Virus record (IMG/VR): IMGVR_UViG_3300009008_000002 | Strand: one strand, 5' to 3' | From: a virus | Taxonomy: Duplodnaviria > Heunggongvirae > Uroviricota > Caudoviricetes | Length of the DNA: 64,000 nucleotides | In this document: positions 8,357-64,000 of the stretch, piece by piece | How positions within the stretch are numbered: the first letter of the stretch is position 1 | Layout: each line of letters begins with the position of its first letter | Program-made: the position numbers and the translations under genes | Notes under the pieces: generated by a model | Databases searched by the model: none | Told to the model about the DNA's origin: nothing | Seen by the model: the letters and a program-made list of their open reading frames with translations, nothing else

Positions 8357-9451
8357 TTATATTCCTCGCTTGGCATCTTCATTTTTAAAGAATTTTTCAG
8401 TCTCTCGCCAAGCATCATAACCATAAACGCCAAGGGGATTTCGCTCGCATAAATCCCTGCGAGTGCGTTCCTTCTCTTTCGTTTTGTCTTCCTTCCACAT
8501 CTCGGCATATCGCCTCATTGCTCGCTCTGCTCGCAATCGAAGCCTCTTTCCGCCCGCTTGTTCGACGGTTTTAAGAACCTTCTTGCGAACGTGATCGTAT
8601 TCATAGAAGCTCTTGCCCATTTGTAGAGTTGCATCAAGCCTAGCAAGCCGTAGTTCACGGTCTTGACCCCACAAATGTGCTTCTCCCTGGCGATCAGCTA
8701 AGTCTTGTGCGTAAGCTACTCTGAGAGCCAGAACCTTGTGAATCTCACACACGTCCTGCATAGGCTTTCGCATCCACCTTGCCATATCGTGATGGATATT
8801 ATGTTCAGACAAGATGCGAATTACAAAGTCATATTTATCTTCTTGGTATGGGTAGCTGCCACCACCATACAAGATTCCTATGATTTGGTTGAGAACATAA
8901 GCCTGCGAAAATGCTCCCCGTTGTGTGAAAGCAGTGAAACATTCACCCATGATATTACTGACAATCTTATCAACAACGCTGTATTGTGTCAGAAATTCAT
9001 CATTGTAACGTCGCAGAGCATAAATTAATTGCTCACACCACGCATAAATTTCATACACACCAGCTAAAGAATGTTCCCCAGCGTGCATCAGCAGGTGTTC
9101 GATATTACAATGCTCAACAGCATCAAATGGACGGCGACCTTCAAAATCAAACGGCCCTGGCTCATTAAAAACGCCTTCCAAATGATGACAAAGGCCCATT
9201 TCCCAAGGTGTAGATGGATCAGTGGTTGTCATAGGATTTGAGGCGCTTGACCCCATAATCCAGTGTAGACCATTAGATTGCTTGCCGAACAGCCCATGCC
9301 AAAGCTGACCCGTTAAGTCTCGCACGACTTTGAATTTCTCAAAATCATACGTGTCGTTTCGGGTTCGCTCTTCCCAACGCTCTACTACGCCGCAGATGCC
9401 CCGCACGGCGTAATACATTTTGGTTCGGCGTTCTTCGTTGCTAAGACCCAT
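8357..9451 (-). CDS. Hypothetical protein
   Basis: Long ORF. Confidence 0.8.
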   Translation of the reverse strand: MGLSNEERRTKMYYAVRGICGVVERWEERTRNDTYDFEKFKVVRDLTGQLWHGLFGKQSNGLHWIMGSSASNPMTTTDPSTPWEMGLCHHLEGVFNEPGPFDFEGRRPFDAVEHCNIEHLLMHAGEHSLAGVYEIYAWCEQLIYALRRYNDEFLTQYSVVDKIVSNIMGECFTAFTQRGAFSQAYVLNQIIGILYGGGSYPYQEDKYDFVIRILSEHNIHHDMARWMRKPMQDVCEIHKVLALRVAYAQDLADRQGEAHLWGQDRELRLARLDATLQMGKSFYEYDHVRKKVLKTVEQAGGKRLRLRAERAMRRYAEMWKEDKTKEKERTRRDLCERNPLGVYGYDAWRETEKFFKNEDAKRGI

Positions 9452-10181
9452 TTTCGTCACCCAACATCAATTTGTAGTCGTCAATGTAACTTGAGAAATT
9501 GTCAAAGTGTCCCCGCATATTTTTGATCAACCAATCTTCCAATATAAGACCGGGATAATCCCTTACAGGGCGCAAAGTCTCGCACACTTCCTCTGGCTCC
9601 AATTTTTGCCAACATTCGTAGTAGGGTCGGCCTTGTTCTCCCGCCTTGAGCCTTTCCAGCATTTCCTTGAAAGTTCGCTCTTGTGCTTCCTCATCCTCAC
9701 CAGACGGAGGAATCATCTTTTTGTCGCCACCAAATATTAATTGGCCATATCTGGTTCCGAAAGGATGTTCGTCCAACATGAAATAACTGCCCCAAAACAA
9801 TTCAATCTGGGCAGTTAAATCTTCACCAGCACAATTTTGAGCAATCCAATTTTGGTCTACATTCGGCAGCGTTGGGCAGAAGATTAAATCTCCTGGTTGT
9901 GGGTATCGTTTGGCAAAGGCAACCCATAAGTTGCTAGTCATGCCTTCCTTGCATATTCGGTGGAAAATCACCCAAGGGAAAGACAGGTATAGCATATCGG
10001 CATGAGGTTGAACTGCATCCTCCCATCGAATTCGGTTGCCTTCCTCGTCATGGTAGTCTTCCATTCGCACACGGGCATGATCCAATTTAACTTTGGATAG
10101 AAAGGCTACGGTTCTTTTACGAGGCGCGTATATCCGTGTGGCTTCCGTATCTCCAAGTAGGCCGATAATTCTACTTCTCAT
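9441..10181 (-). CDS. Prokaryotic E2 (family D)-like protein
   Basis: LSFPWVIF...CPTLPNV...C...FWGSYF pattern. Confidence 0.4.
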   Translation of the reverse strand: MRSRIIGLLGDTEATRIYAPRKRTVAFLSKVKLDHARVRMEDYHDEEGNRIRWEDAVQPHADMLYLSFPWVIFHRICKEGMTSNLWVAFAKRYPQPGDLIFCPTLPNVDQNWIAQNCAGEDLTAQIELFWGSYFMLDEHPFGTRYGQLIFGGDKKMIPPSGEDEEAQERTFKEMLERLKAGEQGRPYYECWQKLEPEEVCETLRPVRDYPGLILEDWLIKNMRGHFDNFSSYIDDYKLMLGDENGS

Positions 10182-24323: not shown

Positions 24324-25226
24324 CTATTCTTCCGAGTAACGGTCTGAGAGCCAGTCTTCCCACATTTTATCTTCTTCATCCGTGAGAACAAAATCCAAGT
24401 CCAATATCGCCTGTTTTAAATCTCTGAAACCCTGTTCAGATTCATCGAATCTCACGATTTCAAAAGGCGACATATCAAGACGGAACATGGCCCAATTATC
24501 CGGCCACTCAGGAGGACAATCAGGATGTTCGTGTATTTCATCCCTATCCAAAGTTTTAATGTCTTGTCGCCCGAAGAACTTGTGGCGTTCATCCCGATGA
24601 GGGTCGTCTTGTTTTAAATATTCGAGCAAAGCCTGAGCATCAGGAATGTCTTCGATTTTAGTCATGCCACCACTGTCAACATGACCAAATATCTCAGTAA
24701 TTCGTCCCGCCTCAAAAAATTCTCGCAAACGGCAATGTGTAGAAGCGCCATGCTCAGGGTGTCGTTTCCAGAATTCTCCCTCTCCATCTTGGCTCAACAT
24801 ACACGTTGCACCTACTCTGGATATGACGCCAAATTCGGTGTAGCCTTGCGCGTGGAGTATTTTATTATTGACCATATCCACGACAACCTGCCCATACTCT
24901 GACGGACAGAGGAACGTATGTTGTGCATAAACGGGTGTCATATTGTGTTGGAACCCGTCATTTTGTGGCATGTATTGGTAGCGACTGCCACCTTCTTTTG
25001 CAGCACGGGCTTCCGCTTCTTCGCACATCTTTAAATATGCTTCACCATTCAGTGCCCAATCCTCGCGGAAGTCATTCCAAGTTTTCAAATAGTCTTGGAT
25101 ATGTTCGGGTTTTTTCTCAACCAAGTCGATATTATCAACGAACCACGGCATCGCATTTGTCCATCGGTCCATTCGATGTTCTTTGCCATCAGGTTCTCGA
25201 ATTGTGACTGCCAGATTTCCACCCAT
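24324..25226 (-). CDS. Hypothetical protein
   Basis: GGGAG RBS; long ORF. Confidence 0.8.
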   Translation of the reverse strand: MGGNLAVTIREPDGKEHRMDRWTNAMPWFVDNIDLVEKKPEHIQDYLKTWNDFREDWALNGEAYLKMCEEAEARAAKEGGSRYQYMPQNDGFQHNMTPVYAQHTFLCPSEYGQVVVDMVNNKILHAQGYTEFGVISRVGATCMLSQDGEGEFWKRHPEHGASTHCRLREFFEAGRITEIFGHVDSGGMTKIEDIPDAQALLEYLKQDDPHRDERHKFFGRQDIKTLDRDEIHEHPDCPPEWPDNWAMFRLDMSPFEIVRFDESEQGFRDLKQAILDLDFVLTDEEDKMWEDWLSDRYSEE

Positions 25227-32616: not shown

Positions 32617-34299
32617 CTACAATTTTGGCAGAAACACATGACTGGAATACAACCTAGCGGCCATGAACCTATACCCTTCATCCCACCACGTCTCCCTCGT
32701 TCGGGGGACGTGGAATGTTTCATACCCACGATGCAAGAGGCGATATTGTAACACATCCCTCTCCATTTCGTGTAGCCAAATAGAACGAGATAATTTATTG
32801 CCAACTCGTAGGTATGGTTTCAACAACCTCTCGGCCATCATTGACATTGTTTCCGGGTCGCCTTCCCAAACGCCATTAAATAAAACGTGAGTATTGGGAC
32901 TCTCGCCGGTTTTGGCCTCCAAATCAGGAAAATCGTGAATGGCAAGACCAGTTTCTTCATCCCCATCCAACCAGTATTCAACTACATCGCCTAGTTTCGA
33001 CTTAATTAGATTCCTTACACCAGCACGATCCCAAGTTGATCTTTGAATCTCAGGTCGAACAAACACAGCACGGTCTATATCAGAATTAAGGCCATATCCC
33101 TTCAATGTGGAGCCATACACGATACTAACTGGGTAAATAACCTCTAACAATTCAGGGTCTTTTAATATCTCCATCACAGAATTGCGGTTATCCTCAAATG
33201 GCGATAGATTGCCATAAAAAGGACCGGCAAGATTGGGATAAAAGATATTTAATTCTTCTCGTTTTTCGGTGAGATTGATTCCGATGCTATGCCAACGGCA
33301 AAACGCCTTAACAACGTGATCTCGCACTCTTTCATCTTGAGCAAACTCTGTTAATATTGGCTCAAACACCTGATACAACTCAATAATGGCTTTTTCTTTT
33401 TCCCCTTGTAGCCACGCCATTTCAACTGCTGATCTGATTCCAACAATGATACAACTGGTTGATTCGACCGTTGTTCCCATCCCTTTTAAATCTTGGCCAT
33501 GCAAAAACGCCTTCCCAACAGCACAACCAATGTTCTCAATGGTTTTCCTTCGCTTCTCCCAACGTAACCACTTCAGTCTTTTTTCGCTTACGCCAAGACA
33601 GCATGTGTTGTCTTCTTCTAGTTGGCGAGTTACAAAGTTGTGGAAATCATTCAGTGGGATTCTCATATCCACCACAGGATTCGGGTGTGGATAAGGCGCA
33701 GTTGAATTCCGTATTGATTCCTTTTGAAAATCATCCAAACTCTCGCCAGAGATTAACCCCTTTTCTAATAAAATAGGGGCGAGAAACCCAGCTTGACACA
33801 CTCTGTCTTCCACCCATTGATTGTCTTCAATGTCTGGGAGATCACCATCTATAAAATCAGCACGAATGTCATTTACTGTGAGAAGCCTGTGCCAACTTTC
33901 AAGATATAATTCAGAGAAGGTGTCAACCGCATCATCATATCGCCTATACCAATCGCCCCTCGGAATTAAACTCAATGGGCAATAAAGAAGGAACCGATCA
34001 TCTTCGCCTGAACTAAGCAACTCGTTCAGAGAATAATATAATTCCACAGGCGGCATTTTACCAGTCCACAATCTCTCTCTGTAGAGATTCCACTGGTAAT
34101 CAAGTTTAGCACGCAATTCTCGCCGTGCATCCACTTGCTTCGGATTGACTGCAAGCGCAGACCAAACCCCGGTTGAATCGTCGTTCAAAAGTGATTCAAC
34201 CGGGGCTGGTTGGCTGACGAATCTACTCGTCTTCATCATTGATGGATACAATCCCTTGAGTAGTGCGGTTGACTGCCCTACCAAATGGCGCGGCTGCAA
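32617..34299 (-). CDS. Pol-beta superfamily nucleotidyltransferase with large N-terminal domain (start uncertain)
   Basis: IVYGSTLKGYGLNSDIDRAVFV (GS...DxD). Confidence 0.7.
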   Translation of the reverse strand: MQPRHLVGQSTALLKGLYPSMMKTSRFVSQPAPVESLLNDDSTGVWSALAVNPKQVDARRELRAKLDYQWNLYRERLWTGKMPPVELYYSLNELLSSGEDDRFLLYCPLSLIPRGDWYRRYDDAVDTFSELYLESWHRLLTVNDIRADFIDGDLPDIEDNQWVEDRVCQAGFLAPILLEKGLISGESLDDFQKESIRNSTAPYPHPNPVVDMRIPLNDFHNFVTRQLEEDNTCCLGVSEKRLKWLRWEKRRKTIENIGCAVGKAFLHGQDLKGMGTTVESTSCIIVGIRSAVEMAWLQGEKEKAIIELYQVFEPILTEFAQDERVRDHVVKAFCRWHSIGINLTEKREELNIFYPNLAGPFYGNLSPFEDNRNSVMEILKDPELLEVIYPVSIVYGSTLKGYGLNSDIDRAVFVRPEIQRSTWDRAGVRNLIKSKLGDVVEYWLDGDEETGLAIHDFPDLEAKTGESPNTHVLFNGVWEGDPETMSMMAERLLKPYLRVGNKLSRSIWLHEMERDVLQYRLLHRGYETFHVPRTRETWWDEGYRFMAARLYSSHVFLPKL

Positions 34300-35582
34300 A
34301 GCCTCGCGCTCGCCGGAAGACCAGAATTGGGGTTGAACGGGTCTTCACCGATACCCTTGGGGCGTCGGCCTCGACCGGGAGTGATACGCTTGCCTTCCAA
34401 CTCATTCCACGGAATCTGCGAACCGAGCATGAACAAGCCACCGAAGTATTGCAACTCTTCGTTGCCACCAGCAACCCGGTCACACTGCATGATACCGAGA
34501 GTGAACCGCGTGAGGTTCTGTTCCATTCGCGGATACGTCGGCGGAACATCGACCTTCAGCTTCTTCAGCAACAGGTCACGACTCGGCATACCACACAGCA
34601 TCGGCAGACGCGGATTTGCGAGCATCTTTTTAATCTCGTTGGCCTCATAAGCGAGAGCCGCCGTGATTTGAACGCCCGTGCCTCGGAACGTCTTGTTGAT
34701 GCAATCGTTGACGGTCAAAGCAGCGTCACGCAACACGCCGCAATCCGGTGGCTGCATCATGCCAGGAGGCATCGGGGCACCACCACCGCCACCAACCAAG
34801 GAAGCCATCGCTCCCATCATCATGGCCGGATTCATGCCGCCTTGTAGCCACGCTTCCTGCCAAGCCTGAAGCTGGTCATTAAAACTGATGATGGATGGCC
34901 ACATGGCCTCATCAATTCGTGCCAGGAGCGTCTTTTTGCGACCTTCGGTGACGTAAGAAGCGTTCAGGCCCTTGATGGCCGCAAACAAGTCACCGTAAGA
35001 TTTCTTCGTCAATTGGTCACGAATCTGCCAGAATTCTTCCGTAACCTGCTCTTCGGTCACGTCGATGAATTCTTCCATTTCCGCAAGCAGGCGCTTGGAA
35101 ATGTCATACAGACCGAAGCGATCCGCAAGAGCCGCACGAATAGCCGAAATCACGGTGTCTTGACCCAACTTGAGAACGCCACCACTTCGCAGCGAATTCA
35201 ACCACGAATCATCATCGGGGCAAGTTGGCAAGACGGAATCATACGCAGCCGTAGCATCGCCATTAGAGACGGGCGCGGGTGCAACTGGTGCGGGAGTCAG
35301 ACCAGCAATGACCTTGCGAGCCTTCAAGACAGGCACGCCAACGGTGGTCAAATCGCCTTCCTGCAAACCGCTCAAATCATCAACGGTTTCGGCACCAAGG
35401 CCCTTGATTTTGCCAACCGTGTCGGCGTCAGTAATACCAAATTCAGCCAGCCTTGCAGCAATGGCATCAACAGGAGCCGCGACGGCTTCCACAGGTGTCG
35501 TCGGAGGAGTGTCGGGAGTGCCAGCAGGTGTGCCAGCAGTAACCGGAGCAGCAGCCTCTTCTGGTTTTTCAGGTGTCGTCAT
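34278..35582 (-). CDS. Hypothetical protein with SAM-like N-terminal domain
   Basis: P/A/T linker; LAEFGI...LGAETVDDL..L...DL..VGVP...ARKV; M/G/P-rich insert. Confidence 0.7.
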   Translation of the reverse strand: MTTPEKPEEAAAPVTAGTPAGTPDTPPTTPVEAVAAPVDAIAARLAEFGITDADTVGKIKGLGAETVDDLSGLQEGDLTTVGVPVLKARKVIAGLTPAPVAPAPVSNGDATAAYDSVLPTCPDDDSWLNSLRSGGVLKLGQDTVISAIRAALADRFGLYDISKRLLAEMEEFIDVTEEQVTEEFWQIRDQLTKKSYGDLFAAIKGLNASYVTEGRKKTLLARIDEAMWPSIISFNDQLQAWQEAWLQGGMNPAMMMGAMASLVGGGGGAPMPPGMMQPPDCGVLRDAALTVNDCINKTFRGTGVQITAALAYEANEIKKMLANPRLPMLCGMPSRDLLLKKLKVDVPPTYPRMEQNLTRFTLGIMQCDRVAGGNEELQYFGGLFMLGSQIPWNELEGKRITPGRGRRPKGIGEDPFNPNSGLPASARLCSRAIW

Positions 35583-39614: not shown

Positions 39615-40160
39615 TTAATTACCTAAGTCAACTGCGGGAAATTTAACATGTGTAGCTGCAAGCCGCAATAAACTTAAATATGCTGTGCGGATTACATCGT
39701 CATGGTCAAATGCCAAAGGATACGGGAAATCATCAGCAGCCGGGAATTTCCAATCTACTTCGTCGGCGTCATCCCCAGCCACACATTTTTCTTCCAATTC
39801 TTCCGAAACAAACGCCCCGTAAACAACACTGATTGTGCGACCGCGAGGGTCACGATCTACGCCATCCCTTACATCCAATCGGATTAGCGTAATGTCGTCT
39901 TTTATAAGACCCGTTTCTTCTTCTAGTTCACGGTAAGCGGCCTCAATAAATTGTTCTCCATCATTCACGTAACCGCCCGGCACGGCCCAATATCCGTGAA
40001 ATACTTCCCCGCCTCTTTTAATTATCAGGATTTTTGGCAAGCCTTGCTTGTTGAAAGCGAACAAACAAATATCGACGGTCAAATCGCCAATCTTAGGCCA
40101 CTCTTTTGCTTCTTCTGCGCTCGGCATATTCTTCCCTTCTTTTGAGTCGTTGTTCCCCAC
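39615..40160 (-). CDS. Nudix hydrolase (ADP-ribose pyrophosphatase / NrtR-like)
   Basis: Nudix box GGYV.DGE....AAYRELEEETGL; RDPRGR.IS; LAFDH. Confidence 0.9.
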   Translation of the reverse strand: MGNNDSKEGKNMPSAEEAKEWPKIGDLTVDICLFAFNKQGLPKILIIKRGGEVFHGYWAVPGGYVNDGEQFIEAAYRELEEETGLIKDDITLIRLDVRDGVDRDPRGRTISVVYGAFVSEELEEKCVAGDDADEVDWKFPAADDFPYPLAFDHDDVIRTAYLSLLRLAATHVKFPAVDLGN

Positions 40161-40380
40161 GAATGAATCTAAAATCTAGCTCATCCTCTCTGAAAACACA
40201 AACTGCCATGCGGTTTTCATGCATGATGTAATACCAGTTGTGTTTTTGAGCCAATTCCCTGTCGCTAATAAACCCTTCTTCTCCCTCCCAACCATCAGGC
40301 AGAGGAAGCATCCCTTTGCCACAAGCAACTCGAATACGAATTCGTTGTAGCTTCTGGAATAAAAAAGGTTTACGGGGCAT
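40093..40380 (-). CDS. Hypothetical protein
   Basis: Fills gap; overlaps Nudix 5' end. Confidence 0.5.
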   Translation of the reverse strand: MPRKPFLFQKLQRIRIRVACGKGMLPLPDGWEGEEGFISDRELAQKHNWYYIMHENRMAVCVFREDELDFRFIRGEQRLKRREEYAERRRSKRVA

Positions 40381-41607: not shown

Positions 41608-42008
41608 TAACCAGCGTCTCTTTTTTCAGTGGGATCTTTGATTAAATTATCTTCATCTTTTCCGCCCCAAGTTTCCACTACCCGGTTGTGATTCTCAATC
41701 ATCGAGCGAACCCTCTCTCTGACTAGCTCAACGGAAACACCTGATTGATCAGCAACCTCTTGTAATTGCTCGTCCGTTGGCATCACAATTTTTTCATCTT
41801 TGGCATGTGTAGCAGCACAAGCGGCACACATTAAATAATACTCTTCATGCCCCGCCTCTTTTATTTGACTCAAAGTGCTTATCGCAAACCAAACTTCTTG
41901 ATTGCAAAAATCACAATGACGAACCTCTACATTGGCGACGTGTTCTGCCCATGTGGGGTTGCAAATTATTACACAATCTTCATCTGTTAGTTCTCTAGGG
42001 TCTTTCAT
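41607..42008 (-). CDS. Zn-finger protein
   Basis: CDFC...CAAC. Confidence 0.7.
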   Translation of the reverse strand: MKDPRELTDEDCVIICNPTWAEHVANVEVRHCDFCNQEVWFAISTLSQIKEAGHEEYYLMCAACAATHAKDEKIVMPTDEQLQEVADQSGVSVELVRERVRSMIENHNRVVETWGGKDEDNLIKDPTEKRDAG

Positions 42009-43233
42009 GTCTTAGCCGCCTCGGATTAAATTCCTCTGTCATCGTCCGCAAATTCCCAAGGGCTAGTCTGACCTGCAATTTAGCCCGTTCGCTTTTTAAA
42101 TTTGATTCTAGGGCCTGTAGAACCGCCTCTGCGTCATCGTATTCGCTCTTAGAGACTTCAGGTTCCCAGGTATCAACATCAAGCCAACACGGATCAGCAT
42201 CATCGCCAAGGAATTCAATTCCCTTGTCGATAGTAATTCGCACGGCCCGCAGAACTACCTTCTCAGGTTCAACTTGACCAGTATCAACCCAATCCTTGAG
42301 CCAGAATTCCGCCTTCTCTCGTTCTGGCCAAACAGCAAGGCCACGCTTGGTTTCATAAATATCGTCTTCACCGTGTCTGGGACAGATGGCCCAACCTTCA
42401 ATTGGTCCCAGGTCTAATTCACGAATTTTGTGTGTAAGCGTTTTAAGTGCGGGAATTGCTGTGGTGAGGGCTACAGTAGTGCAGACCCGATCATGGAACT
42501 CTGGAAAACTAGAATAAATAGACGACCAGTGACGAACATTTGCAAAATTAGCAATAATGCCAACTGCATCCTCTACATTGTCGGTATTTAATTTTCTAGC
42601 CCCCAGATGAATATGGGCTACTGGTTCTATTACTTCCCAGATGGCTTTTAAAATAGCAACTGGATGCTTCGGGTCTTCAAACATTTCGGGATGAGATTCT
42701 GCACATCCCACAATGACCCAAATGCTCTCGGCGTCCATGAAACCATCTTCACACTGCGCCGAAACGAACCTATCTCGTATCTCGCTGATATTAGCACAAC
42801 AAACAGGCAGCAACTCCCCCTCTCGATTTGCCATCCCCGTCCACACTTCCGAATCAAATGGCAATTGGATGGATTTTATTTTGTCGAGGCGAGAATATGC
42901 TACATCTATATCTTTAACGTCATGTGATAACATTAAAGTGTCAGCGATTGATGCCACTTGACGAGTGCAACACCCTTTTTCTTTAGGAACGAAATCTAGT
43001 TCCGACAGATAAGCGTGGTCTTGGAGAATGGCAGTTAAAATATCGCTGAATTCAGTGTCTTGGGGAAATTCACGGTCGTCTTTAATTATCTCGCCGTCTC
43101 GCACGCCTTCTATGTGGATAGAAATACACTTGTGTGAGGCTTCGTAGCCTGTTGGACGGTAAATGACGACAAAACCATCTTCACCGATCTGAGCAAACAT
43201 CCCCGGATGTGCTAATTTATCAAATTCAATCAT
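41995..43233 (-). CDS. Hypothetical protein
   Basis: Long ORF. Confidence 0.8.
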   Translation of the reverse strand: MIEFDKLAHPGMFAQIGEDGFVVIYRPTGYEASHKCISIHIEGVRDGEIIKDDREFPQDTEFSDILTAILQDHAYLSELDFVPKEKGCCTRQVASIADTLMLSHDVKDIDVAYSRLDKIKSIQLPFDSEVWTGMANREGELLPVCCANISEIRDRFVSAQCEDGFMDAESIWVIVGCAESHPEMFEDPKHPVAILKAIWEVIEPVAHIHLGARKLNTDNVEDAVGIIANFANVRHWSSIYSSFPEFHDRVCTTVALTTAIPALKTLTHKIRELDLGPIEGWAICPRHGEDDIYETKRGLAVWPEREKAEFWLKDWVDTGQVEPEKVVLRAVRITIDKGIEFLGDDADPCWLDVDTWEPEVSKSEYDDAEAVLQALESNLKSERAKLQVRLALGNLRTMTEEFNPRRLRHERP

Positions 43234-45801: not shown

Positions 45802-45863
45802 AGCTATTTCTCCAGGGAACAAGGTTTGTTTCCCGGCTGACTCCAATTTTTGCCACCACGACC

Positions 45864-45891
45864 ATTATAGCACAGTTTCCTCAAAAGTGAA
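45864..45891 (-). promoter_or_regulatory. Early promoter TTCACT-N16-TATAAT (extended -10, TGC)
   Basis: Matches consensus. Confidence 0.75.
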
Positions 45892-45983
45892 ATCAACACC
45901 AATAAGTGTAGAGCATCGGCCTCATTTCCAAAATCAGGCATCCAAATCCACGAAAACCTTCCCAAATTCAAGCTGCCACCGCA

Positions 45984-46241
45984 CTATTTTTTCCTCTTTG
46001 ACCATCGGGCTTGATTACCGCCTACTTTGCGGCCCGATTCATACGCTTTGGCCCATGCTACTTGCCATGCTTCCCATGCAATCAATTCAGGATCATCATG
46101 TATTTCGGCAAGTTCCTCCAAGGTTTCTCTAAACCATTTCAAAAACTCTGATCTGACTTTCTGTGAGGGTTCTGACTTCGACCTTCTCTTTTTTGGAGTA
46201 GGGACCATCCCTTCCAGTTTTTTAAGAAGGTCGTCATTCAT
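45984..46241 (-). CDS. Hypothetical protein
   Basis: ORF track. Confidence 0.65.
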   Translation of the reverse strand: MNDDLLKKLEGMVPTPKKRRSKSEPSQKVRSEFLKWFRETLEELAEIHDDPELIAWEAWQVAWAKAYESGRKVGGNQARWSKRKK

Positions 46242-51465: not shown

Positions 51466-52188
51466 TTATTTCCTCCACCAGTCATGGTAGTCCACGATAT
51501 GTTTCATTAAATCAGCCGCCAACCGATCAGAAGGACCAATCACACTGCTTGCTCCATCATTCTCAAAAATGGTCAGCTTGTGTTGTCCTGCGCGTAAATC
51601 AGTCAAGTCGTTTGCCACAACGAGATCACTGCCCGCCTCTTTTATTTGTTTCATCGCGGCGGCTTTTAATTGTTCTGGTGTGGAGCCAGACAGCAATTTA
51701 AAACCTACAAGCATGGTAGCAGGACACCATTCCTTGACGTGTTTAATTAGTTTGGGCAATGGCTCGAATTTAAGCGATTTATTCTTGCCGGAACTAATTT
51801 TTCCTTCGGTGCGAGCTACACCGAAGTCGCTGACAGCCGCAGCTAGAATGGTAATGTCGGGATGTTCCTGCCGAAGCAGGGTTTCCAAGCCACCGGCATA
51901 TTCATCGAAGGTGCCATAGGGGCGTTCAACATACCAGGAATGTCGATGGAGCTTATTGATTTCTGCAAGCTCTTCGACAATATCATCGAGGCTTCTCCGA
52001 TCTAAATCGGCATCCACCACGAAAGGACGACGAGAACCTTTGGCGCACAGGTAATAAACGCGATGCGAGTCCTTCAACGCAACGCGGGCGATTTGGCAAC
52101 CAAACCGCCCGCTACTCATGTTCGTAATTTTTCGCACATCATCTATCGGTACGCTGGTTCCTCCACTACTGATTAAAACTTTCTTCAT
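51466..52188 (-). CDS. coaB: Phosphopantothenate-cysteine ligase
   Basis: SSGGT..PID.VR.ITN.SSG..G, AAAVSDF, LVGFKL, VVANDL. Confidence 0.85.
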   Translation of the reverse strand: MKKVLISSGGTSVPIDDVRKITNMSSGRFGCQIARVALKDSHRVYYLCAKGSRRPFVVDADLDRRSLDDIVEELAEINKLHRHSWYVERPYGTFDEYAGGLETLLRQEHPDITILAAAVSDFGVARTEGKISSGKNKSLKFEPLPKLIKHVKEWCPATMLVGFKLLSGSTPEQLKAAAMKQIKEAGSDLVVANDLTDLRAGQHKLTIFENDGASSVIGPSDRLAADLMKHIVDYHDWWRK

Positions 52189-53158
52189 CTTTCATTGCCT
52201 CATAAAGCACCCGCAACTGTGCAAGAGTTTCATTTAACAATTGTCCAGCGCGAGTCCGAGACTTGCCGTGTCGCTTAGCGACTTCGGCTTTCCAGCCATG
52301 AAACGGAGTCTGACAACCGATCAACAGATCCCTTTGGAAATCTGTCAGGTTTGCCATCTCCACGCATTTTTGAATCGCTTCGTGCAACTCTTTGGTTGCA
52401 ACAGTCTCAGATACATTCGCATCTTCTAATTCACAGTCGAACGATGTTAAATCCCAGTGGTGTTCTCCCCACCGTCCGAATCCAGCGCTTGTCCGACTCA
52501 TTGTTTTGAAATCGGTTTCACTAATTACTGTGGAAAGCGCCTTGGCGAGGATATGTGCCTCATCCAAATTTAATTCGGCCTGGATCACGTATTCATCGAA
52601 CGTTATTGGCACCGGGCAATTGGCTCTATATTGTTCGTAGCCCTGCACCAACTTTCTAGCGTTCTCAGCCGATGGGGGAACCATCGGTAGTTTCATGTTT
52701 TCAATCTCTCTACGCAACCGTCGTTCGATTGCCCACCAGAGGTAGGTTATAAACTCAACGCCGCCGATGTAGCCGTAGTGAGCCTCTGAGAAGGCCATGT
52801 GGGCTTCTTGGTATAAATCAGCAAAGAGTTGGTGCCGATCTTGACCACTGACCCTCTCGACCCAGACCGACGTGCGCAACGTGATCAACGGTGCGAAACC
52901 TCGCATCATTTCCCACTCAATTTCTTTAACGCGCATGATCGCGTCGAAATCGGTTTGTGGGAATACTTGTTCAATCTTGCCAAGCCTCAAACCCGGCTTA
53001 ATGTGCCCCGAAAACAGCAATTTGCGAAAATGTTGCTTTTTCCGGTTCCCTAGTGCTGAAAAGGCCCAGTGTTTCAGGAGTTTGTTGCCATCTGCCATAA
53101 TCTGGCAGCACTCCTCTAATCTAGCCCTAGACAGCTTGACGTGCTGAATAAACTGCAT
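52166..53158 (-). CDS. Sigma70-family RNA polymerase sigma factor (divergent)
   Basis: Region 2 DLYQEA..A...F.TYLWWAI; region 4 LT..QR.L...EVA..HG.SR.R..QL. Confidence 0.75.
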   Translation of the reverse strand: MQFIQHVKLSRARLEECCQIMADGNKLLKHWAFSALGNRKKQHFRKLLFSGHIKPGLRLGKIEQVFPQTDFDAIMRVKEIEWEMMRGFAPLITLRTSVWVERVSGQDRHQLFADLYQEAHMAFSEAHYGYIGGVEFITYLWWAIERRLRREIENMKLPMVPPSAENARKLVQGYEQYRANCPVPITFDEYVIQAELNLDEAHILAKALSTVISETDFKTMSRTSAGFGRWGEHHWDLTSFDCELEDANVSETVATKELHEAIQKCVEMANLTDFQRDLLIGCQTPFHGWKAEVAKRHGKSRTRAGQLLNETLAQLRVLYEAMKDEESFNQ

Positions 53159-53538: not shown

Positions 53539-54234
53539 ATGAGGCAGAGAGTCAGCATAGTAGAGGGCAGAAAACCGATTTTGATAATCGCCCCATACGG
53601 GCCGAATCATAAAAATACTGATACACTCGTTGAAATGCTCGCCAAAAGAGTAGACGGCTTTGCAGTGATTAATTGGGGCTGGTGTAGGTCGCCTGTGATA
53701 AATTATAAAAAAGATTTAGCGGATTGTGGTAATATCAATCAACTTCACCAGAACATCTTATACGATGAATTTCTCGACCCCATAATAAGATTTAAAAATA
53801 GAATATCAAGATTCCACCAGACCGTTCACATTTTCATTATGACAGGACATGTAGGCGACTCGGTGCCACAGGGAATCGACATGATTGTGGGGTATGGGAA
53901 AACAACATCTTATACTTGTGAAGAATGGCGCAAAAACCTATTCATGTATCTGGCAAAGAAAGAAAGTATTAATATTTTTGAAGCCAAAAGCACAAGCAAC
54001 CTCTCAGCAACAACACGGCAACACATTAACCAATTATTCAAAAGTTGGTATCCAGATCGCCATGTACAGAGTATGCAACTAGATGTTGTTCACGGCTTAA
54101 GAAACACCAAGGATGACGTAGAAATCCTAGTCGAATTTCTCGGTAGCGTAATGCTAAAACATTATATTTTGCCTAAACAAAAGGCCAAAGCCTTAGTTCC
54201 TGATGATTTTAAAATACGAATACTTAATCCGTAG
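53539..54234 (+). CDS. Hypothetical protein, weak N-formylglutamate amidohydrolase-like fold
   Basis: GGAGG RBS; PILIIAP...FAVIN; CTAAATA upstream at 53300-53306. Confidence 0.7.
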   Translation: MRQRVSIVEGRKPILIIAPYGPNHKNTDTLVEMLAKRVDGFAVINWGWCRSPVINYKKDLADCGNINQLHQNILYDEFLDPIIRFKNRISRFHQTVHIFIMTGHVGDSVPQGIDMIVGYGKTTSYTCEEWRKNLFMYLAKKESINIFEAKSTSNLSATTRQHINQLFKSWYPDRHVQSMQLDVVHGLRNTKDDVEILVEFLGSVMLKHYILPKQKAKALVPDDFKIRILNP

Positions 54235-54872: not shown

Positions 54873-55322
54873 TTATCTCATTTGATTTATAATGAAATGC
54901 ACTTCTTGCCCTTCTAAACCTTGCTGCATGAGGTATTGAGTAGTTTGCGCAACATCAACTACCCCCTGATTTTTTTGCATTAATGACTGGGCTAATCTAG
55001 CCCCCAACCCACCTTCTAAGGCTTCTATTCTGCTAGGTTTATCAAGACTTTGGAGTTGTTGTATAATTTGCCCTATCTCGTCTTTGCTGCCCCAAAAAGT
55101 CACTCCCTCATTTTTTTTATTCACATATTTGGGGCGGGGAATCTGATTTCCTGCTTTCAGCACTTTAAAAGGCTCTGTAACTCCCATGTTTTCTAAATCC
55201 CCAGGATAATCCTTGCTTAAATCGTCTCGAATATCTCGCACGCCAGCAGGCGGTTTAGGGATGTGTTGTTTTAATTTTTTAGCCTTTTCATGCTCAGTTA
55301 GCCATTGTTCAAAAGTTTTCAC
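54873..55322 (-). CDS. Late protein with capsid-targeting-like N-terminus
   Basis: MKTFEQWLTE. Confidence 0.75.
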   Translation of the reverse strand: MKTFEQWLTEHEKAKKLKQHIPKPPAGVRDIRDDLSKDYPGDLENMGVTEPFKVLKAGNQIPRPKYVNKKNEGVTFWGSKDEIGQIIQQLQSLDKPSRIEALEGGLGARLAQSLMQKNQGVVDVAQTTQYLMQQGLEGQEVHFIINQMR

Positions 55323-56182
55323 ATTAAACTCCTTAATTCTTCGTCACTAATATCTCTACCAAATTTCCCCTTAAATGCGCCTCTTATTATATGTAGCCTG
55401 TGATCTTCAGGTTTTCCTGCTACTCTAGGTAGCATCATTTGAACAAATTCTCGCTCACCTTCTGGGGCTGGTTGGGATTGTTTAATTCTCCTATTCGCCA
55501 CTTTTTTGGCACTCGCATTCATGGCATCTACTGTATCGTAAGGATCTTTCTTACCCTGTCTACCTAATCTGTCCATGAAAATAAAAGTGATCAATAATTT
55601 CACACGCCTCGTATTTTTAAATTTACCGTGTTCATCTACAATGCCGCTGTCCTTAATTAATCGCTTGCTGAAACCAACTTCACCTAAAGACATATGATTT
55701 TTAATAACATACCACAGGTCTTTTTTGTCCTCAAAATTAGCGCTATTTGCTATACTTTGCCACAATGGAGATTGAAGCAACTCTTTGGCTGCTGGGTTGA
55801 AATTCCACGGCATTTCATGTTTAGGTGCTTTTAATTTATTCACATCTACATTATCCACATCTCGCCACGACGTTTTCTCCCCTTTGTCATCAACTTGAAC
55901 AGTAGCGTTTCCTTTACCCAAATCATGTAGCCAAGCAGCCAGTCTTAAAACATTCCTGTCTTCCTCAGAAAACTCTGTATCTATATTAGAAAAGGCTCCA
56001 TTGGGATCATTTGCCAAAGACTTCAATTGATTAATGGCTGCATCTAATTGCTTCCGAACCAGTCTCGAATGTACATACACCGGCCCTTCCGCATGATAAT
56101 CGGGGCGCTGAGGCACATCCGTAATTTTTCTGTATATGTTTTCCATTAATTCGCAGAACTCGAAAAAATCTTTAAAATACAT
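55319..56182 (-). CDS. HD-domain hydrolase (CCA/Pnkp-associated type)
   Basis: Q.PDYH.EG.V..HS, WLHDLGK, HE, NHM, D; N-terminus MYFKDFFE. Confidence 0.85.
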   Translation of the reverse strand: MYFKDFFEFCELMENIYRKITDVPQRPDYHAEGPVYVHSRLVRKQLDAAINQLKSLANDPNGAFSNIDTEFSEEDRNVLRLAAWLHDLGKGNATVQVDDKGEKTSWRDVDNVDVNKLKAPKHEMPWNFNPAAKELLQSPLWQSIANSANFEDKKDLWYVIKNHMSLGEVGFSKRLIKDSGIVDEHGKFKNTRRVKLLITFIFMDRLGRQGKKDPYDTVDAMNASAKKVANRRIKQSQPAPEGEREFVQMMLPRVAGKPEDHRLHIIRGAFKGKFGRDISDEELRSLM

Positions 56183-59790: not shown

Positions 59791-60138
59791 CTAAAATGGT
59801 TCTTCACAACGTTGAATGAAATGTCTGACGTTATTCCTACTGTGTATGGGGGACGGCATCTCTATGGGGCTATCGAAAAATTCAGCGACAATCTCCACAA
59901 CCATCTCTTCGTCCAATGGCTTCTTGTCCAACACCCCAATCGACAAGTGCCAGAACCTCTTCATGTTCGGCGGCAAAATGTCTTCTGTCAGCATAAGCCG
60001 CAATGTGCGACCCTTGTAAGTGAAATCCTGTCTGTTCTTAGGGCCTCCCTGTTTTAGTTTCTCTATCAGGACTGCGGGTTCGACAGGAAACGGCTCTATG
60101 CCCGCCTTCAAAATATCGGCAACTGCTTTCAGGTCCAT
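59791..60138 (-). CDS. Hypothetical protein (DUF7694-like HLSI motif)
   Basis: FWHLSIG; HFIQ. Confidence 0.65.
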   Translation of the reverse strand: MDLKAVADILKAGIEPFPVEPAVLIEKLKQGGPKNRQDFTYKGRTLRLMLTEDILPPNMKRFWHLSIGVLDKKPLDEEMVVEIVAEFFDSPIEMPSPIHSRNNVRHFIQRCEEPF

Positions 60139-60205
60139 TATACATTGTCTCCCATGTTTTTCAACCCCATTCGGTTGATTGCATTGCTATCAATTAATAT
60201 TTCTG

Positions 60206-60234
60206 TTGACTTTGGCACCCCCCCATGATACATT
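60206..60234 (+). promoter_or_regulatory. Sigma70 promoter TTGACT-N17-TACATT (TGn extended)
   Basis: Upstream of + strand gene 60288. Confidence 0.6.
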
Positions 60235-60287
60235 ACCAATGTCTTCTTGGGGTAATCTGTATTCATTTTTAGTTTTTAGGGGAACTG

Positions 60288-60713
60288 ATGAAGGATAAAT
60301 ACATAATTGACACGGACGGTATCGCCAACCCTATCACAATCTACATCAACATTATTCAGAACAACATCATCGTTATGTGTACAAATGGTTTCGACCAATT
60401 TAGCACAACTTTTTGGAAACCCGAAAGCTGCACTCACGATGATCCTCTTACGTGGCTTGTAGGGCACTTAGTCATCATGGAGAAAATCATTGATGATGGC
60501 CCTCACATGGCAGAGGAAGCAGTAACCGACTTGAACTATTTAAAAACCAATTGTGTTGCTCCTAATGATTGGTCTTGTGATGAATGTAACAAATCATTCG
60601 GTATTGTAGCGCAAAAACTAAAAGAATGGATGGGAGACGACTACAAGGAATTCATACGCTCCCCAATCATTCGCTCGAAAGATGGGGCAACGAATCGAAA
60701 TCCACAGTATTAG
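60288..60713 (+). CDS. Hypothetical protein (counter-oriented)
   Basis: AGGGG RBS; own promoter; fills a minus-strand gap. Confidence 0.6.
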   Translation: MKDKYIIDTDGIANPITIYINIIQNNIIVMCTNGFDQFSTTFWKPESCTHDDPLTWLVGHLVIMEKIIDDGPHMAEEAVTDLNYLKTNCVAPNDWSCDECNKSFGIVAQKLKEWMGDDYKEFIRSPIIRSKDGATNRNPQY

Positions 60714-61044
60714 CTTCCTTGTGGGCCACGATCCACTTCGCCTCATCTAAATATTGTGCCGCAAGTCGTCCGCTTGGGGTTTGTCTGGCTAATGTGATTA
60801 ACGATTTTGCTTGTTGGTGCCAATCCGCCTCTCTATGGGGGCACACATATAAATCCCAAGTGTCTTTCGATGGTTCGCCTCTTGATTTAGCAGCCATTGC
60901 GGCCACATAGCCACGCGGCCCGATTTTATTTCTGGTAACAGGCATCACTGCTCCGCACACACCACATCGCAACTGATCACCGTGGGTGCCGGGATCGGGT
61001 GTAAAGCGGTCACAGCCCAAAGAGGGCGTCCTTTTTTCGCTCAT
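60667..61044 (-). CDS. Zn-binding hypothetical protein
   Basis: CGVC...CPH. Confidence 0.65.
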   Translation of the reverse strand: MSEKRTPSLGCDRFTPDPGTHGDQLRCGVCGAVMPVTRNKIGPRGYVAAMAAKSRGEPSKDTWDLYVCPHREADWHQQAKSLITLARQTPSGRLAAQYLDEAKWIVAHKEANTVDFDSLPHLSSE

Positions 61045-61271
61045 CGCCAACCTATTAAATTCATTGGGGTAAAATCTTCCTGATTTTCCAACAACCAAGG
61101 GATGACGCACTCCGTTTCAAACAACGTCAGGTCCAGACTTTCAGGGCCGGGGGCACATCCACTACCCATTATAACATAGCCATGAACATTGTTCAGTCGA
61201 AACTCTTCTAATTTCTCTTTGGTGGCTCCAAGAGCCACTAATCTTTTGGTCGAAGCGTAGTCGCCATACAT
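61041..61271 (-). CDS. Hypothetical protein
   Basis: AGGAG RBS. Confidence 0.65.
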   Translation of the reverse strand: MYGDYASTKRLVALGATKEKLEEFRLNNVHGYVIMGSGCAPGPESLDLTLFETECVIPWLLENQEDFTPMNLIGWR

Positions 61272-61281
61272 GGTTTCTCTC

Positions 61282-61497
61282 CTAACCTACAGGGAACTTC
61301 TCACGAATGTTGCCTTTGCTGTCTACAATATCAACCTGATCTGCCCCAGTGCTGCGGATTCGCCCCTTATACCTTTCTTTAACAAATTCCACAGCTTCGT
61401 CAAACGTGTCGAATTCGCCGCCAGTGACAAGGAACGTCTCGTTGTCGAATGTATCCCAATGATACACCCCAAATTCTTTCTTATGCTGGATCGGCAT
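61282..61497 (-). CDS. Hypothetical protein
   Basis: ATG 61497 after GGAGG. Confidence 0.65.
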   Translation of the reverse strand: MPIQHKKEFGVYHWDTFDNETFLVTGGEFDTFDEAVEFVKERYKGRIRSTGADQVDIVDSKGNIREKFPVG

Positions 61498-61759
61498 TTT
61501 CCTCCTCCATTCTTTTAACACTCTTGCGTCGGACCTTAACCCAGTGTCTAGGCCCATGACCTGCTTTCATTTCATTAATTAATTCAACGACCCGTTCACC
61601 CCAACCTTGACCGTATTCTTTACGAATCTCTTCCTCGGTAGCAGGAACATTAACAGTTACCCAGAAATGCCACAAATTTAAAGCATAGGGGAAACTGACC
61701 ACCCTTCCCCGGCGACCCTGGTGTGGCCCTTCAATGATTTTAACAAATGTATCTTTCAT
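61481..61759 (-). CDS. KOW-like small protein
   Basis: VKIIEGPHQGRRGRV. Confidence 0.65.
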   Translation of the reverse strand: MKDTFVKIIEGPHQGRRGRVVSFPYALNLWHFWVTVNVPATEEEIRKEYGQGWGERVVELINEMKAGHGPRHWVKVRRKSVKRMEEENADPA

Positions 61760-61998
61760 TTGTCTTCTTCTTTATTTAAGTGCCATTCGTTCAGTTGTCG
61801 CCTAACGTCTTCTAGGTGTTCCTCACGTATAATAAGACTATACGGTTGTTTGAAATATGTAGAATAATCCAACGTCACACGACACCACCCATCACCATCC
61901 ATAAGGATAGTGGTTCCCATATCTTCTACTGAATCTGCCATAATCCAAGCACCATGTATGGGATTGACCAAAAAGCTAAAATCGCTATTGCAACCCAC
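61756..61998 (-). CDS. Hypothetical protein
   Basis: ATGA overlap. Confidence 0.55.
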   Translation of the reverse strand: MGCNSDFSFLVNPIHGAWIMADSVEDMGTTILMDGDGWCRVTLDYSTYFKQPYSLIIREEHLEDVRRQLNEWHLNKEEDK

Positions 61999-62010
61999 AA
62001 AAGACGCCGA

Positions 62011-62556
62011 TCATTCCACATCTTCGTCAGAATCCTCTTCGCTTCCTTCACTTGTAAATTTCCTTTCATTCAGCATTTGTCTCAATTCTTCCAATTCATC
62101 TTCGCTAAGATAGAGACAACTTCCCCATTTAGCCAACCCCAATCTTAAAACCCCATCTTCGCCCTGATGAAGCGTTATGGCACCATCATCAGTTTCGTAT
62201 TCTAATTCTAGTTTTTCTGGCTCGTCAAGTGTGGGAGGTTCGGCATTAGCGTTATATGGCCCGGCAGCATGATATACTGGCCCCGTATCGTCAACATCAT
62301 CCCAGCCGTCGTCGTCAAAGAAGCCATCGTCGTCAACCAACTCCTCGAATTCTTTAAATCCGAGCGGGTCATTCGGATCGTGGGTGTGAGTTTCCCAAGG
62401 TGGGGGCTTCGCAGCAGCATTTAGCATCTCACGGGCCATATCAGGCGTTATGACTTGCCTGAATATTACAGGCGCATTAGGCGGATCAGGTGGTGTGCCT
62501 AGATCGTCAGACTCTTCAACTTCTGACAACCATTTGAGAATATCATCGTCATCCAT
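62011..62556 (-). CDS. Acidic hypothetical protein
   Basis: ATG 62556 after GAGGT; track extension overlaps tRNA. Confidence 0.7.
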   Translation of the reverse strand: MDDDDILKWLSEVEESDDLGTPPDPPNAPVIFRQVITPDMAREMLNAAAKPPPWETHTHDPNDPLGFKEFEELVDDDGFFDDDGWDDVDDTGPVYHAAGPYNANAEPPTLDEPEKLELEYETDDGAITLHQGEDGVLRLGLAKWGSCLYLSEDELEELRQMLNERKFTSEGSEEDSDEDVE

Positions 62557-62569
62557 TTCAAACCTCAAG

Positions 62570-62644
62570 CGTCCCTGGTGGGACTCGAACCCACAACGCA
62601 GAGATTTAGAGTCTCCCGCTCTGACCAATTAGAGCTACAGGGAC
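62570..62644 (-). tRNA. tRNA with CUA anticodon (amber suppressor)
   Basis: GTCCCTG / CAGGGAC acceptor; GCTC / GAGC D-arm with GG; GGAGA-CTCTAAA-TCTCT; GTGGG-TTCGAGT-CCCAC; G73; no encoded CCA. Confidence 0.92.
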
Positions 62645-62655
62645 GTGGGACGCCA

Positions 62656-63141
62656 TTAACAATACTCCACAATTTCAGAACCATCGGAACTTTTAACTGT
62701 GATTTTGGCCAGTGGGCGCTCGTCAACTGGTGGTCGGTCTTCTTTAAATTCGACAACCTTTCCTTTTTCCGGGTAGTTGCCAGCAATGGTGTATTCTACA
62801 TCGTAATCTTCGGTGTTCTCTGGGGTCACGTCGCCAAACCATTCAAGCACCGTTGGCATATCCTCCTCTTTCACAGGATGGAAGGATTGATTTTCGTGTG
62901 ACGAAAGTGACCCGTCTGCATGTCTCATAATTACAAGGTCAGTCTTCCAAGCGCCCCATTTTATTCTCACCTGGACAATGTAGCCTATATACCGTTCCCA
63001 CCCTCTTTCGCCACGCATGTTGTCCATTTGCAATCCGGTAATATAATATTTACCGGGTTCGGGATACGGTTGGCGACTATTTGGAACCATGTTCTCGTAG
63101 TCACGATTTTCGACAATCAATTTTATATTTGCTGCCAACAT
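62656..63141 (-). CDS. Hypothetical protein
   Basis: ATG 63141 in a TAATG overlap. Confidence 0.7.
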   Translation of the reverse strand: MLAANIKLIVENRDYENMVPNSRQPYPEPGKYYITGLQMDNMRGERGWERYIGYIVQVRIKWGAWKTDLVIMRHADGSLSSHENQSFHPVKEEDMPTVLEWFGDVTPENTEDYDVEYTIAGNYPEKGKVVEFKEDRPPVDERPLAKITVKSSDGSEIVEYC

Positions 63142-63443
63142 TATTGCAACTCCATTTCCCAAATATAACTGTAGCCGTGAAAATCTGGGGATGGTGGTAT
63201 AATGATTACCGTTCCATCTTGACACTCGAATGGCTCAGGCTCATCGTCGTTTATCCATGTGCCTTCATAACACCACAGGTTTCTATCGGGCCAAGGAATC
63301 ACGCCACTAATTTTCATCTTGCCGCCCGCATCATGGATGCCAGTTTTTCCATGCACAACGGCTGTCCACCCAAGCGGAATTATTGCAAAATACAACACCG
63401 CCAGGATGGTAAAGGCTATCGCTAAAATTCGCAAGTATTTCAT
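63141..63443 (-). CDS. Signal-anchored small protein
   Basis: ATG 63443; N-terminal TM. Confidence 0.65.
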   Translation of the reverse strand: MKYLRILAIAFTILAVLYFAIIPLGWTAVVHGKTGIHDAGGKMKISGVIPWPDRNLWCYEGTWINDDEPEPFECQDGTVIIIPPSPDFHGYSYIWEMELQ

Positions 63444-64000
63444 TACCCATCCCTCAATTTTACAAACTCCTTGATGAACCACTCGCCTATTGGCGAATTT
63501 TTCGCAACATGATCGAGCAATTGATCCACTGTGAGTCTTTCGCCATCATCCATTTGCGCAATTACTTTGTCGCCGTCATAATGCTCTTTCAGCGTTTCTA
63601 GCCACTCGACGCAATGAGGCATGTCACCATCTGAATCAGGGGCGTTGCCTTCTTGGACGATTTCAACAACTTCAATTTCTTCGTCGTCGTCGTCGGGCAC
63701 TGGCAATTCGTTAATGAATTCTGGCGGTTGTTCTTCAAGCGGCTGTAGTTCACCATCCTCGGCCACCTGGACTTCCCCAGAACGATTGTATAAAGAAAGC
63801 ATGTCCCTGAACATATACATGATGAGGCGCTCTACCTTGGGGTGAAGGTAGGTTTCAGGGTTTCTATAAAAGACGCTCTTGCCTTGCTGACAAGCCTCGC
63901 ACCCCAACACAATCATTCCAGCGACATGCCTCAATCCATAATCACCCATATTTAACACGAAAACGTGTTCGGGTATTTCGGGACATGCATCTTCATCTTT
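63443..64000 (-). CDS. Acidic hypothetical protein (5' end outside window)
   Basis: Frame stays open upstream of 63958 to window end. Confidence 0.7.
   Translation of the reverse strand, partial: KDEDACPEIPEHVFVLNMGDYGLRHVAGMIVLGCEACQQGKSVFYRNPETYLHPKVERLIMYMFRDMLSLYNRSGEVQVAEDGELQPLEEQPPEFINELPVPDDDDEEIEVVEIVQEGNAPDSDGDMPHCVEWLETLKEHYDGDKVIAQMDDGERLTVDQLLDHVAKNSPIGEWFIKEFVKLRDG

Follow-up and report, generated by a model that had tools for sequence, protein, structure and literature searches.

A predicted amber suppressor tRNA of arginine-type ancestry in a large phage whose genes still stop at TAG

A suppressor tRNA encoded by a phage is commonly read as an indication that the genetic code has been rewritten. 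In phages with a reassigned stop codon, recoding of TAG goes with a release factor of the RF2 type and recoding of TGA with RF1 (Borges et al., bioRxiv 10.1101/2021.08.26.457843; PMC13037316). A suppressor tRNA in a jumbo phage with the standard code is nevertheless a kind already known: amber suppressors have been published for the cultured phage XacN1 (PMC5852040), and in Eneladusvirus database annotations tRNA-Sup-CTA genes are assigned to Yersinia phage fHe-Yen9-04, Serratia phage BF and the Erwinia pEa_SNUABM phages. The phage described here, a very large marine one in which TAG is plainly a stop codon, carries a single tRNA gene with the anticodon CUA in the DNA stretch analysed, a segment of 64,000 nucleotides referred to below as the window, which forms part of a 193,439-bp contig.

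The only tRNA gene detected by ARAGORN in the window lies on the minus strand (62569-62644, anticodon cta), and the Rfam model RF00005 matched it end to end at 62644-62570 with a score of 60.2 bits (E = 1.6e-10; threshold 29 bits). We place the gene at 62570..62644 (minus strand) and its anticodon at 62607..62609, in the 7-nt loop CUCUAAA, where U33 precedes it on the 5′ side and A37 follows on the 3′ side. The acceptor stem GUCCCUG/CAGGGAC has G1-C72 as its first base pair and G73 as the discriminator base. The D stem is GCUC/GAGC, and the D loop contains G18G19; the anticodon stem comprises five base pairs (GGAGA/UCUCU), the variable loop 5 nt (GCGUU), and the T arm reads GUGGG-UUCGAGU-CCCAC with UUCGAGU as the T loop. 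In the Rfam alignment each of the four stems is paired throughout, with canonical U33, A37, G18G19 and T loop. Stems of 7/4/5/5 bp, U33, G18G19, a TTCRA T loop and a score above the gathering threshold characterize the molecule as an elongator-type tRNA. The canonical cloverleaf, the CTA anticodon, the G1-C72 pair, G73 and the 5-nt variable loop described in the initial annotation were all confirmed by ARAGORN and Rfam. Two features were absent from that description: the D loop is 10 nt long and includes an additional U directly 3′ of the D stem, and CCA is not encoded in the gene, G73 being followed by CUU. Judged by these features, the gene encodes a genuine amber-suppressor-type tRNA.

ARAGORN labels the gene as tRNA-Pyl, a label that follows from the anticodon alone. 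Pyrrolysine tRNAs have a short D loop lacking G18G19, a T loop lacking TTC, a 3-nt variable loop and a long anticodon stem. The CUA anticodon is compatible with such a tRNA, but in the molecule of the window G18G19 is present, the T loop contains TTCGA, the variable loop measures 5 nt and the anticodon stem 5 bp; in addition, no PylS-like gene or family appears among the Pfam families listed for the 133 kb read. The distinction from tRNA-Pyl made in the initial annotation is thus upheld: by its structure the pyrrolysine reading appears effectively refuted, and we give it next to no chance.

The tRNA gene is flanked on both sides by minus-strand genes of no known family, neither of which has a Pfam match. 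The gene upstream (62656..63141, 161 aa, supported by the sequence and by the JGI contig gene call) ends with a TAA codon at 62656-62658, 11 nt before the 5′ end of the tRNA. The gene downstream (62011..62556, 181 aa, with an acidic N-terminus, supported by the sequence and a gene call) has its ATG 13 nt past the tRNA 3′ end, with GAGG ahead of the ATG. Because flanks of 11 and 13 nt leave no room for a promoter of its own, the tRNA must be cut from an early polycistronic transcript. Scanning the surroundings of the tRNA for promoters and terminators did not yield sites in excess of those in shuffled sequence. Elsewhere in the window, a strong promoter-like intergenic site was noticed at 45850-45905 on the minus strand (TTGATT, 17 nt, extended -10 TGCTATAAT). 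Pfam searches with ten neighbouring proteins did not reveal a tRNA-processing or CCA-adding enzyme; the sole signal of this search was a sub-threshold HD match in 55319-56182.

Four other assemblies, comprising two JGI contigs and two ENA scaffolds from no fewer than two other samples, match the tRNA and its flanks letter for letter, bringing the number of assemblies with identical copies to five; Logan contigs from a second marine metagenome run are identical as well. The recurrence of identical copies in separate assemblies and in a second run indicates that the anticodon is not an assembly error. A relative with ~90% identity, from a sediment metagenome run, keeps the tRNA region together with the upstream gene; in this relative 7 nt stand in place of the downstream gene 62011-62556 (segment 61830-62544 of the window). 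Megablast with 60000-64000 found no match among GenBank phages, and an exact-pattern scan for the tRNA with any anticodon gave nothing in a viral and a metagenome contig collection, both of which lack this phage. No relative was found among viral contigs when both flanking proteins were used as queries; a 52%-identical homolog of the upstream protein is encoded on a 3.9-kb contig, with no tRNA beside it.

Overlapping contigs of the same phage population were merged with the window to give 132,917 nt (the 133 kb set). One more tRNA was found in this set, a tRNA(CAU) at L044 4119-4194 (window-equivalent ~77.5 kb). A 90-nt 'tRNA-Trp' reported by ARAGORN beyond the window (L046 2064-2153) has no T loop and is probably false. 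This region of the phage carries scattered single tRNAs, unlike the tRNA arrays of the related phage LR756511.1 (see below). Just past the window are genes for a TIR-domain protein and a CsrA homolog (L043/L044 5964-6986; L045 1840-2031), alongside RtcB, a kinase and a Prok-E2 cluster.

Comparison with other tRNAs showed the body of the molecule to be of the arginine type by ancestry, as judged from base identities. It is most similar to tRNA-Arg(UCU) of LR756511.1, with which it shares 79% identity, the acceptor stem and G73. In a collection of 185,579 species genomes we searched for tRNAs that agree with it in both strands of the acceptor stem, in the 5′ strand of the D stem and in G73, and that have a T loop of the form TTCRA. 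There were at least 120 matches in bacteria, and the 120 listed were all tRNA-Arg; their anticodon was UCU in 87, CCU in 25, CCG in 5 and UCG in 3. Among these listed matches A20, the base directly after G18G19, was present in 117 of the 118 scorable tRNA-Arg, and C35 in all, whereas the tRNA of the window has U20 and U35 in their place. The molecule is thus a tRNA-Arg by descent (acceptor stem, G73, D stem GCUC) but not by function, A20 and C35 being gone.

A20 and C35 are the main determinants for bacterial ArgRS, U35 attracts LysRS and GlnRS, and the change of A73 to G73 turns a lysine-inserting amber suppressor into a partly glutamine-inserting one (PMC9976931). Since both arginine marks are gone, the likely charge is glutamine or lysine; our best guess is Gln, failing that Lys, by rules that are those of E. 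coli and may not be the host's. The initial annotation had called the charged amino acid unclear, and it is indeed not readable from the sequence. A plausible course of events would be that the anticodon of a tRNA-Arg(UCU)-type gene became CUA and that the arginine marks A20 and C35 were lost. Orthology with the tRNA(CUA) of LR756511.1 was considered but is not supported: the two are 73% identical and differ in their acceptor stems, and the window's tRNA is closer to tRNA-Arg. More generally, the suppressor-type tRNAs of other phages have bodies unrelated to that of the window's tRNA, which is not their ortholog; such tRNAs therefore seem to be recruited repeatedly.

TAG is in regular use as a stop codon in this phage. 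In the window, gene calls (~95 genes) gave 41 TAA, 36-38 TGA and 17-20 TAG stops. Examples of genes ending in TAG are, on the minus strand, 479-1078, 1288-1761, 9441-10181, 24324-25226, 32617-34299, 34278-35582, 41995-43233 and 52166-53158, and on the plus strand 53539-54234. Beyond the window, 15 of 79 genes in the adjoining 69 kb end in TAG, and over the 132,917 nt the count is 32 of 173 called genes, ~19% of stops. Code 11 open (stop-to-stop) frames cover ~95% of the minus strand in the window. The statements of the initial annotation that the surrounding genome still stops at TAG and that no gene is broken by an in-frame TAG both hold, the latter throughout the ~133 kb read. Comparison of code 11 and code 15 coding density in the window and in LR756511.1 revealed no region that is rescued by reading TAG as sense. 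The signs of code 15, namely in-frame TAG in conserved genes, rescue of coding density and depletion of TAG, were absent from the window, the 133 kb set and LR756511.1. The phage keeps the standard code, as shown for the ~133 kb read.

Sequences following TAG were compared with those following TAA or TGA: there was no excess of coding-like extensions, of tandem (back-up) stops or of abutting genes in the same frame. The two longest in-frame extensions past TAG in the window, behind 45984-46241 and 479-1078, were rejected as read-through candidates. The former runs through an intergenic promoter region, and behind 479-1078 comes a 58-aa gene that is separate and has an ATG of its own. In this minus-strand segment (293-1078) the 199-aa gene 479-1078 ends in TAG, and the same-frame 58-aa ORF, which starts two codons on (MIEGTTIAELRK...VLKEDDTVEF), has the look of a small beta-grasp protein; read-through would fuse the two, and the ORF is probably just a separate gene.

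An RF2, an aminoacyl-tRNA synthetase or a CCA-adding enzyme, which the initial annotation had proposed to look for, were not seen in the DNA of this phage read. The release factor of the phage population is of the RF1 type and lacks domain 1. Its gene (L052 5545-6314, minus strand, window-equivalent ~126.6-127.4 kb) is on a scaffold that is tied to the window's contig by an identical 581-aa Band_7 protein and by gene order. The body frame encodes QRVPPTESKGRRQTS (PxT/PPT motif, RF1 type) and GPGGQ. Two +1 frameshifts, at CUU-UAA-C and CUU-UAG-C, are needed for its expression: the ATG is at L052 5545, CTT TAA C at 5569-5575 and CTT TAG C at 5618-5624. Past the UAG sentinel the unshifted frame ends two codons on (CCA GTC TAA). 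A CUU-UAG-C frameshift sentinel in the RF1 gene implies that UAG is used as a stop. As TAG-recoded phages carry RF2, an RF1-type factor is also the wrong factor for a TAG code switch.

The release factor of LR756511.1 is likewise of the RF1 type with two slip sites, the second sentinel being CTT TGA C (L005 1426-2204, ~413.9-414.6 kb). UGA is not read by RF1. The sentinel codon thus differs between the relatives, UAG here and UGA in LR756511.1. When the LR756511.1 factor was used as a tblastn query, the 73 matching records included no Yersinia, Serratia, Erwinia or Xanthomonas phage.

Among GenBank records the nearest is LR756511.1, a 595,163-bp genome of an uncultured phage. Its clamp-loader-like protein shows 46% amino acid identity to that of the window phage, and the two share a few other proteins, in loosely the same order. 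It has ~60 tRNAs; one lone tRNA(CUA), at 179,588-179,661, stands apart from the main tRNA arrays and lies in roughly the same part of the genome as the clamp-loader-like gene. Code-11 frames of at least 100 codons cover 87% of the genome, and no 20-kb block is rescued specifically by TAG as sense. TAG ends 188 of the 1005 called genes. These are evenly spread along the genome (chi-square p = 0.27), make up 12-25% of the genes in every 50-kb bin, and are even across codon-usage quartiles. There was no TAG-specific signal in extensions or same-frame neighbours, and none of ten TAG-joined ORF pairs of LR756511.1 has a Pfam domain running across the TAG. The only complete close relative with a tRNA(CUA) is therefore standard-coded throughout. 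A Gln/Glu, Lys/Asp/Asn or Trp/Tyr synthetase was not found in it; in the absence of a matching synthetase, a host enzyme must charge its tRNA(CUA). The suggestions of the initial annotation that the genome is partially recoded or in an early stage of code change find no support in the DNA read: TAG is not depleted in the 133 kb, the RF1 gene has a UAG sentinel, and LR756511.1 is standard-coded.

A candidate for the kind of gene on which such a tRNA might act was found in the relatives. In all five complete huge-phage records checked, a gene resembling the peptidyl-tRNA-hydrolase-2 family (PTH2-like, PF01981-like) has TAG at codon 3 or 4. The layout of this gate is a Shine-Dalgarno sequence (SD), ATG, one or two codons, TAG and then the conserved protein. 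In LR756511.1 the gene (~171.4 kb) starts with AAGGAG-N8-ATG ACT CAC TAG (AAGGAGAAGAAAA ATG ACT CAC TAG GTT...), and the one tRNA(CUA) of this phage is 8 kb away. In LR756501.1 the start is AAGGAG...ATG TCG TAG ATT..., and a second TAG is found in the conserved domain; two tandem tRNA(CUA) genes lie 2 kb downstream on the same strand. The in-frame TAGs of the latter gene (L276 1489-1872) occupy codon 3 and approximately codon 36, the second of them within the domain, and the bodies of the two tandem tRNAs (L281 5586-5739) are unrelated. The start is ATG ACA TAG ATT in LR756504.1, ATG AAA AAT TAG ATT in LR756502.1 (L277 1363-1719) and ATG AAC AAT TAG ATT in LR745206.1 (L194 18155-18514). ARAGORN and a structure-aware pattern detected no CUA-type tRNA in LR756502.1 and LR745206.1, and in LR756504.1 only an odd tRNA with an 8-nt loop (AUUCUAAC). 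CUA-type tRNAs are thus present in three of the five records with the gated gene, if the odd tRNA of LR756504.1 is counted. This tRNA, at 281045-281120 on the minus strand, was assigned the anticodon 'tcta' by ARAGORN and is possibly a non-canonical reader of UAG or UAGA.

An alignment of the five PTH2-like proteins revealed that conservation begins directly past the TAG, with L-I-V-I-T-R-x-D as the conserved start; in four of the five genes the TAG is followed by ATT. Initiation at the first canonical start past the TAG would cost the LR756511.1 protein its conserved first strand, and re-initiation offers no way around the second, internal TAG of LR756501.1. LR745206.1 and LR756502.1, which lack a detectable suppressor, indicate that the gate can exist without a recognisable key. 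In the literature searched, we found no paper that describes a tRNA(CUA) paired with an amber-gated gene of the PTH2-like type.

Neither tblastn with the five proteins nor a five-member HMM detected a PTH2-like gene in the 133 kb of this phage. A profile search of proteins with the gated-gene family yielded 583 members; the best 120 of the 583 include none on this phage's contigs. Scanning the 133 kb for a start codon followed by one to six codons, TAG and a long open frame gave chance-like cases only. One such arrangement in the window, ATG AGT TAG ATT at 40176-40184 (minus strand), in frame upstream of a Nudix gene (39615-40160), is probably due to chance; the Nudix gene has a better SD and ATG at 40127 than at the gate-like sequence. 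Of the four explanations offered by the initial annotation, regulated read-through fits best, in so far as the relatives have a single gated gene with TAG; its target was not found in the 133 kb.

As TAG is plainly a stop in this phage, even serving as a sentinel in the RF1 gene, the tRNA must have a narrower role than recoding. With moderate confidence we favour the view that it acts as a key for one or a few genes with a deliberate in-frame UAG, charged by the host and competing with RF1. The tRNA would be transcribed with the early genes and cut from the transcript; a host enzyme would then add CCA and a host synthetase the amino acid. By competing with RF1 at UAG it would then open one or a few amber-gated genes, of which the small PTH2-like gene of the relatives, with UAG at codon 3 or 4, would be the example. 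We infer that the tRNA is expressed and charged, which amino acid it carries, and that its target lies beyond the DNA read. The frequency of TAG stops counts against such a role: with ~19% of genes ending in TAG and no compensating tandem stops seen, an efficient suppressor would extend many phage proteins.

The missing target would be no difficulty if the tRNA had no dedicated target at all and merely made UAG slightly leaky in the infected cell. General low-level read-through might cushion a very large genome against amber mutations, or lengthen and disrupt proteins of the host or of competitors, and an autoregulated phage RF1 would keep the damage to phage genes tolerable. XacN1 offers a parallel, since it has two tRNA(CUA) genes and in-silico read-through of its 18 amber stops identified no target (PMC5852040), and the UAG sentinel in the RF1 gene of this phage population is also consistent with leakiness. 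We nevertheless consider this explanation unlikely. With so many TAG stops lacking back-up stops, the cost to the phage would equal the cost to the host; the relatives have a specific, conserved gated gene; and mini RF1 factors also occur in huge phages with no detectable suppressor, so that RF1 and tRNA do not form a dedicated pair. Another possibility is that, in the part of the genome not seen, the early-made tRNA switches on late structural or lysis genes with many in-frame TAG codons. The ~133 kb read come from a genome of at least 193 kb whose relatives reach 595 kb, and such stage-specific recoding is the function that the literature describes for phage tRNA(CUA) (Borges et al., bioRxiv 10.1101/2021.08.26.457843; PMC13037316). 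LR756511.1, however, with a tRNA(CUA) of its own, has no recoded block and no domain that spans TAG; TAG is not depleted in the present phage, and its release factor is a UAG-terminating RF1, whereas TAG-recoded phages carry RF2. We regard such recoding as rather improbable.

The tRNA might also not decode at all. It could serve as a decoy or competitor that engages a host nuclease directed at tRNAs or a factor that binds arginine tRNAs, or it could be a duplicated tRNA-Arg gene in decay. Its arginine-type body is unable to read arginine codons, the RNA-repair genes in the genome (RtcB, kinase) suggest a conflict over tRNAs, and the extra U in the D loop is unusual. Such readings are difficult to reconcile with fully paired stems and canonical U33, A37, G18G19 and T loop, and the changes affect exactly the two positions at which an Arg tRNA has to change in order to read amber without being charged with arginine. 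The relatives, moreover, keep CUA tRNAs beside amber-gated genes. A non-decoding role is thus quite improbable in our view.

Returning to the favoured role as a key for amber-gated genes, the sentinel in the release factor gene lets the RF1 gene and the tRNA interact in principle in this phage. A dedicated pair of RF1 and tRNA(CUA) was considered and rejected: RF1-type mini factors were present in all five huge-phage records, two or three of which have no recognisable suppressor. A more elaborate possibility, speculative and of low probability in our estimate, is that the suppressor derived from tRNA-Arg and the frameshift-gated RF1 constitute one circuit that controls both arms of the UAG decision, their mutual antagonism giving a timed or bistable switch. 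If the tRNA read the UAG sentinel, translation would run into the UAA two codons later and RF1 synthesis would be aborted; RF1 would in turn block suppression. Such a switch would set when amber-gated genes, such as the PTH2-like gene of the relatives, are made.

Together with the gated genes of five huge phages, the tRNA supports the notion that one stop-reading tRNA can serve as a translational key in large phages with the standard code. For genome annotation it means that tRNAs of this type should not trigger code-15 gene calling. The molecule would also be a clear natural example of a suppressor made from an ordinary tRNA by removal of exactly two arginine identity marks, and an arginine-type body without these marks leads to a simple, testable prediction of the inserted amino acid.

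Among the known systems, XacN1 and the Eneladusvirus phages resemble the present case in combining, in a large phage, a canonical amber-type tRNA with the continued use of TAG at gene ends, with no target revealed by simple read-through. There are differences: XacN1 has 18 amber stops, whereas here ~19% of genes end in TAG; the body of the Yersinia phage tRNA is unrelated to the arginine-type body in the window; and the population of the window phage has an RF1 gene with a UAG sentinel. Code-15 phages (crAss-like, Lak and others; bioRxiv 10.1101/2021.08.26.457843) share with it a phage tRNA(CUA) located among standard-code early genes and presumably charged by the host. In code-15 phages many in-frame TAG codons occur in late and lysis genes, TAG stops are depleted, and RF2 is sometimes encoded; in the window phage no in-frame TAG was found, TAG stops are common, and the release factor is of the RF1 type. 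Phages that pair a gated PTH2-like gene with a tRNA(CUA) are similar in being large standard-code phages with a lone tRNA(CUA), and differ in the gated gene, which was not found in the 133 kb of the window phage.

Laboratory amber suppressors built on E. coli tRNA-Arg (PMC9976931) combine an arginine-type body with a CUA anticodon, as does the tRNA described here, but the latter is a natural gene and also lacks A20, a main ArgRS determinant. The phage RF1 gene is comparable to prfB, the RF2 gene with an autoregulatory +1 frameshift, in its CUU-stop-C slip sites, one of which is CUU-UAG-C. It differs from prfB in having two sites, in encoding an RF1-type factor without domain 1, and in its location outside the window. 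A UAG-reading tRNA would compete with the frameshift at CUU-UAG-C. What this phage adds to the known systems is the arginine-type ancestry of a suppressor whose identity marks have been erased, and its coexistence with a UAG-sensing RF1 gene.
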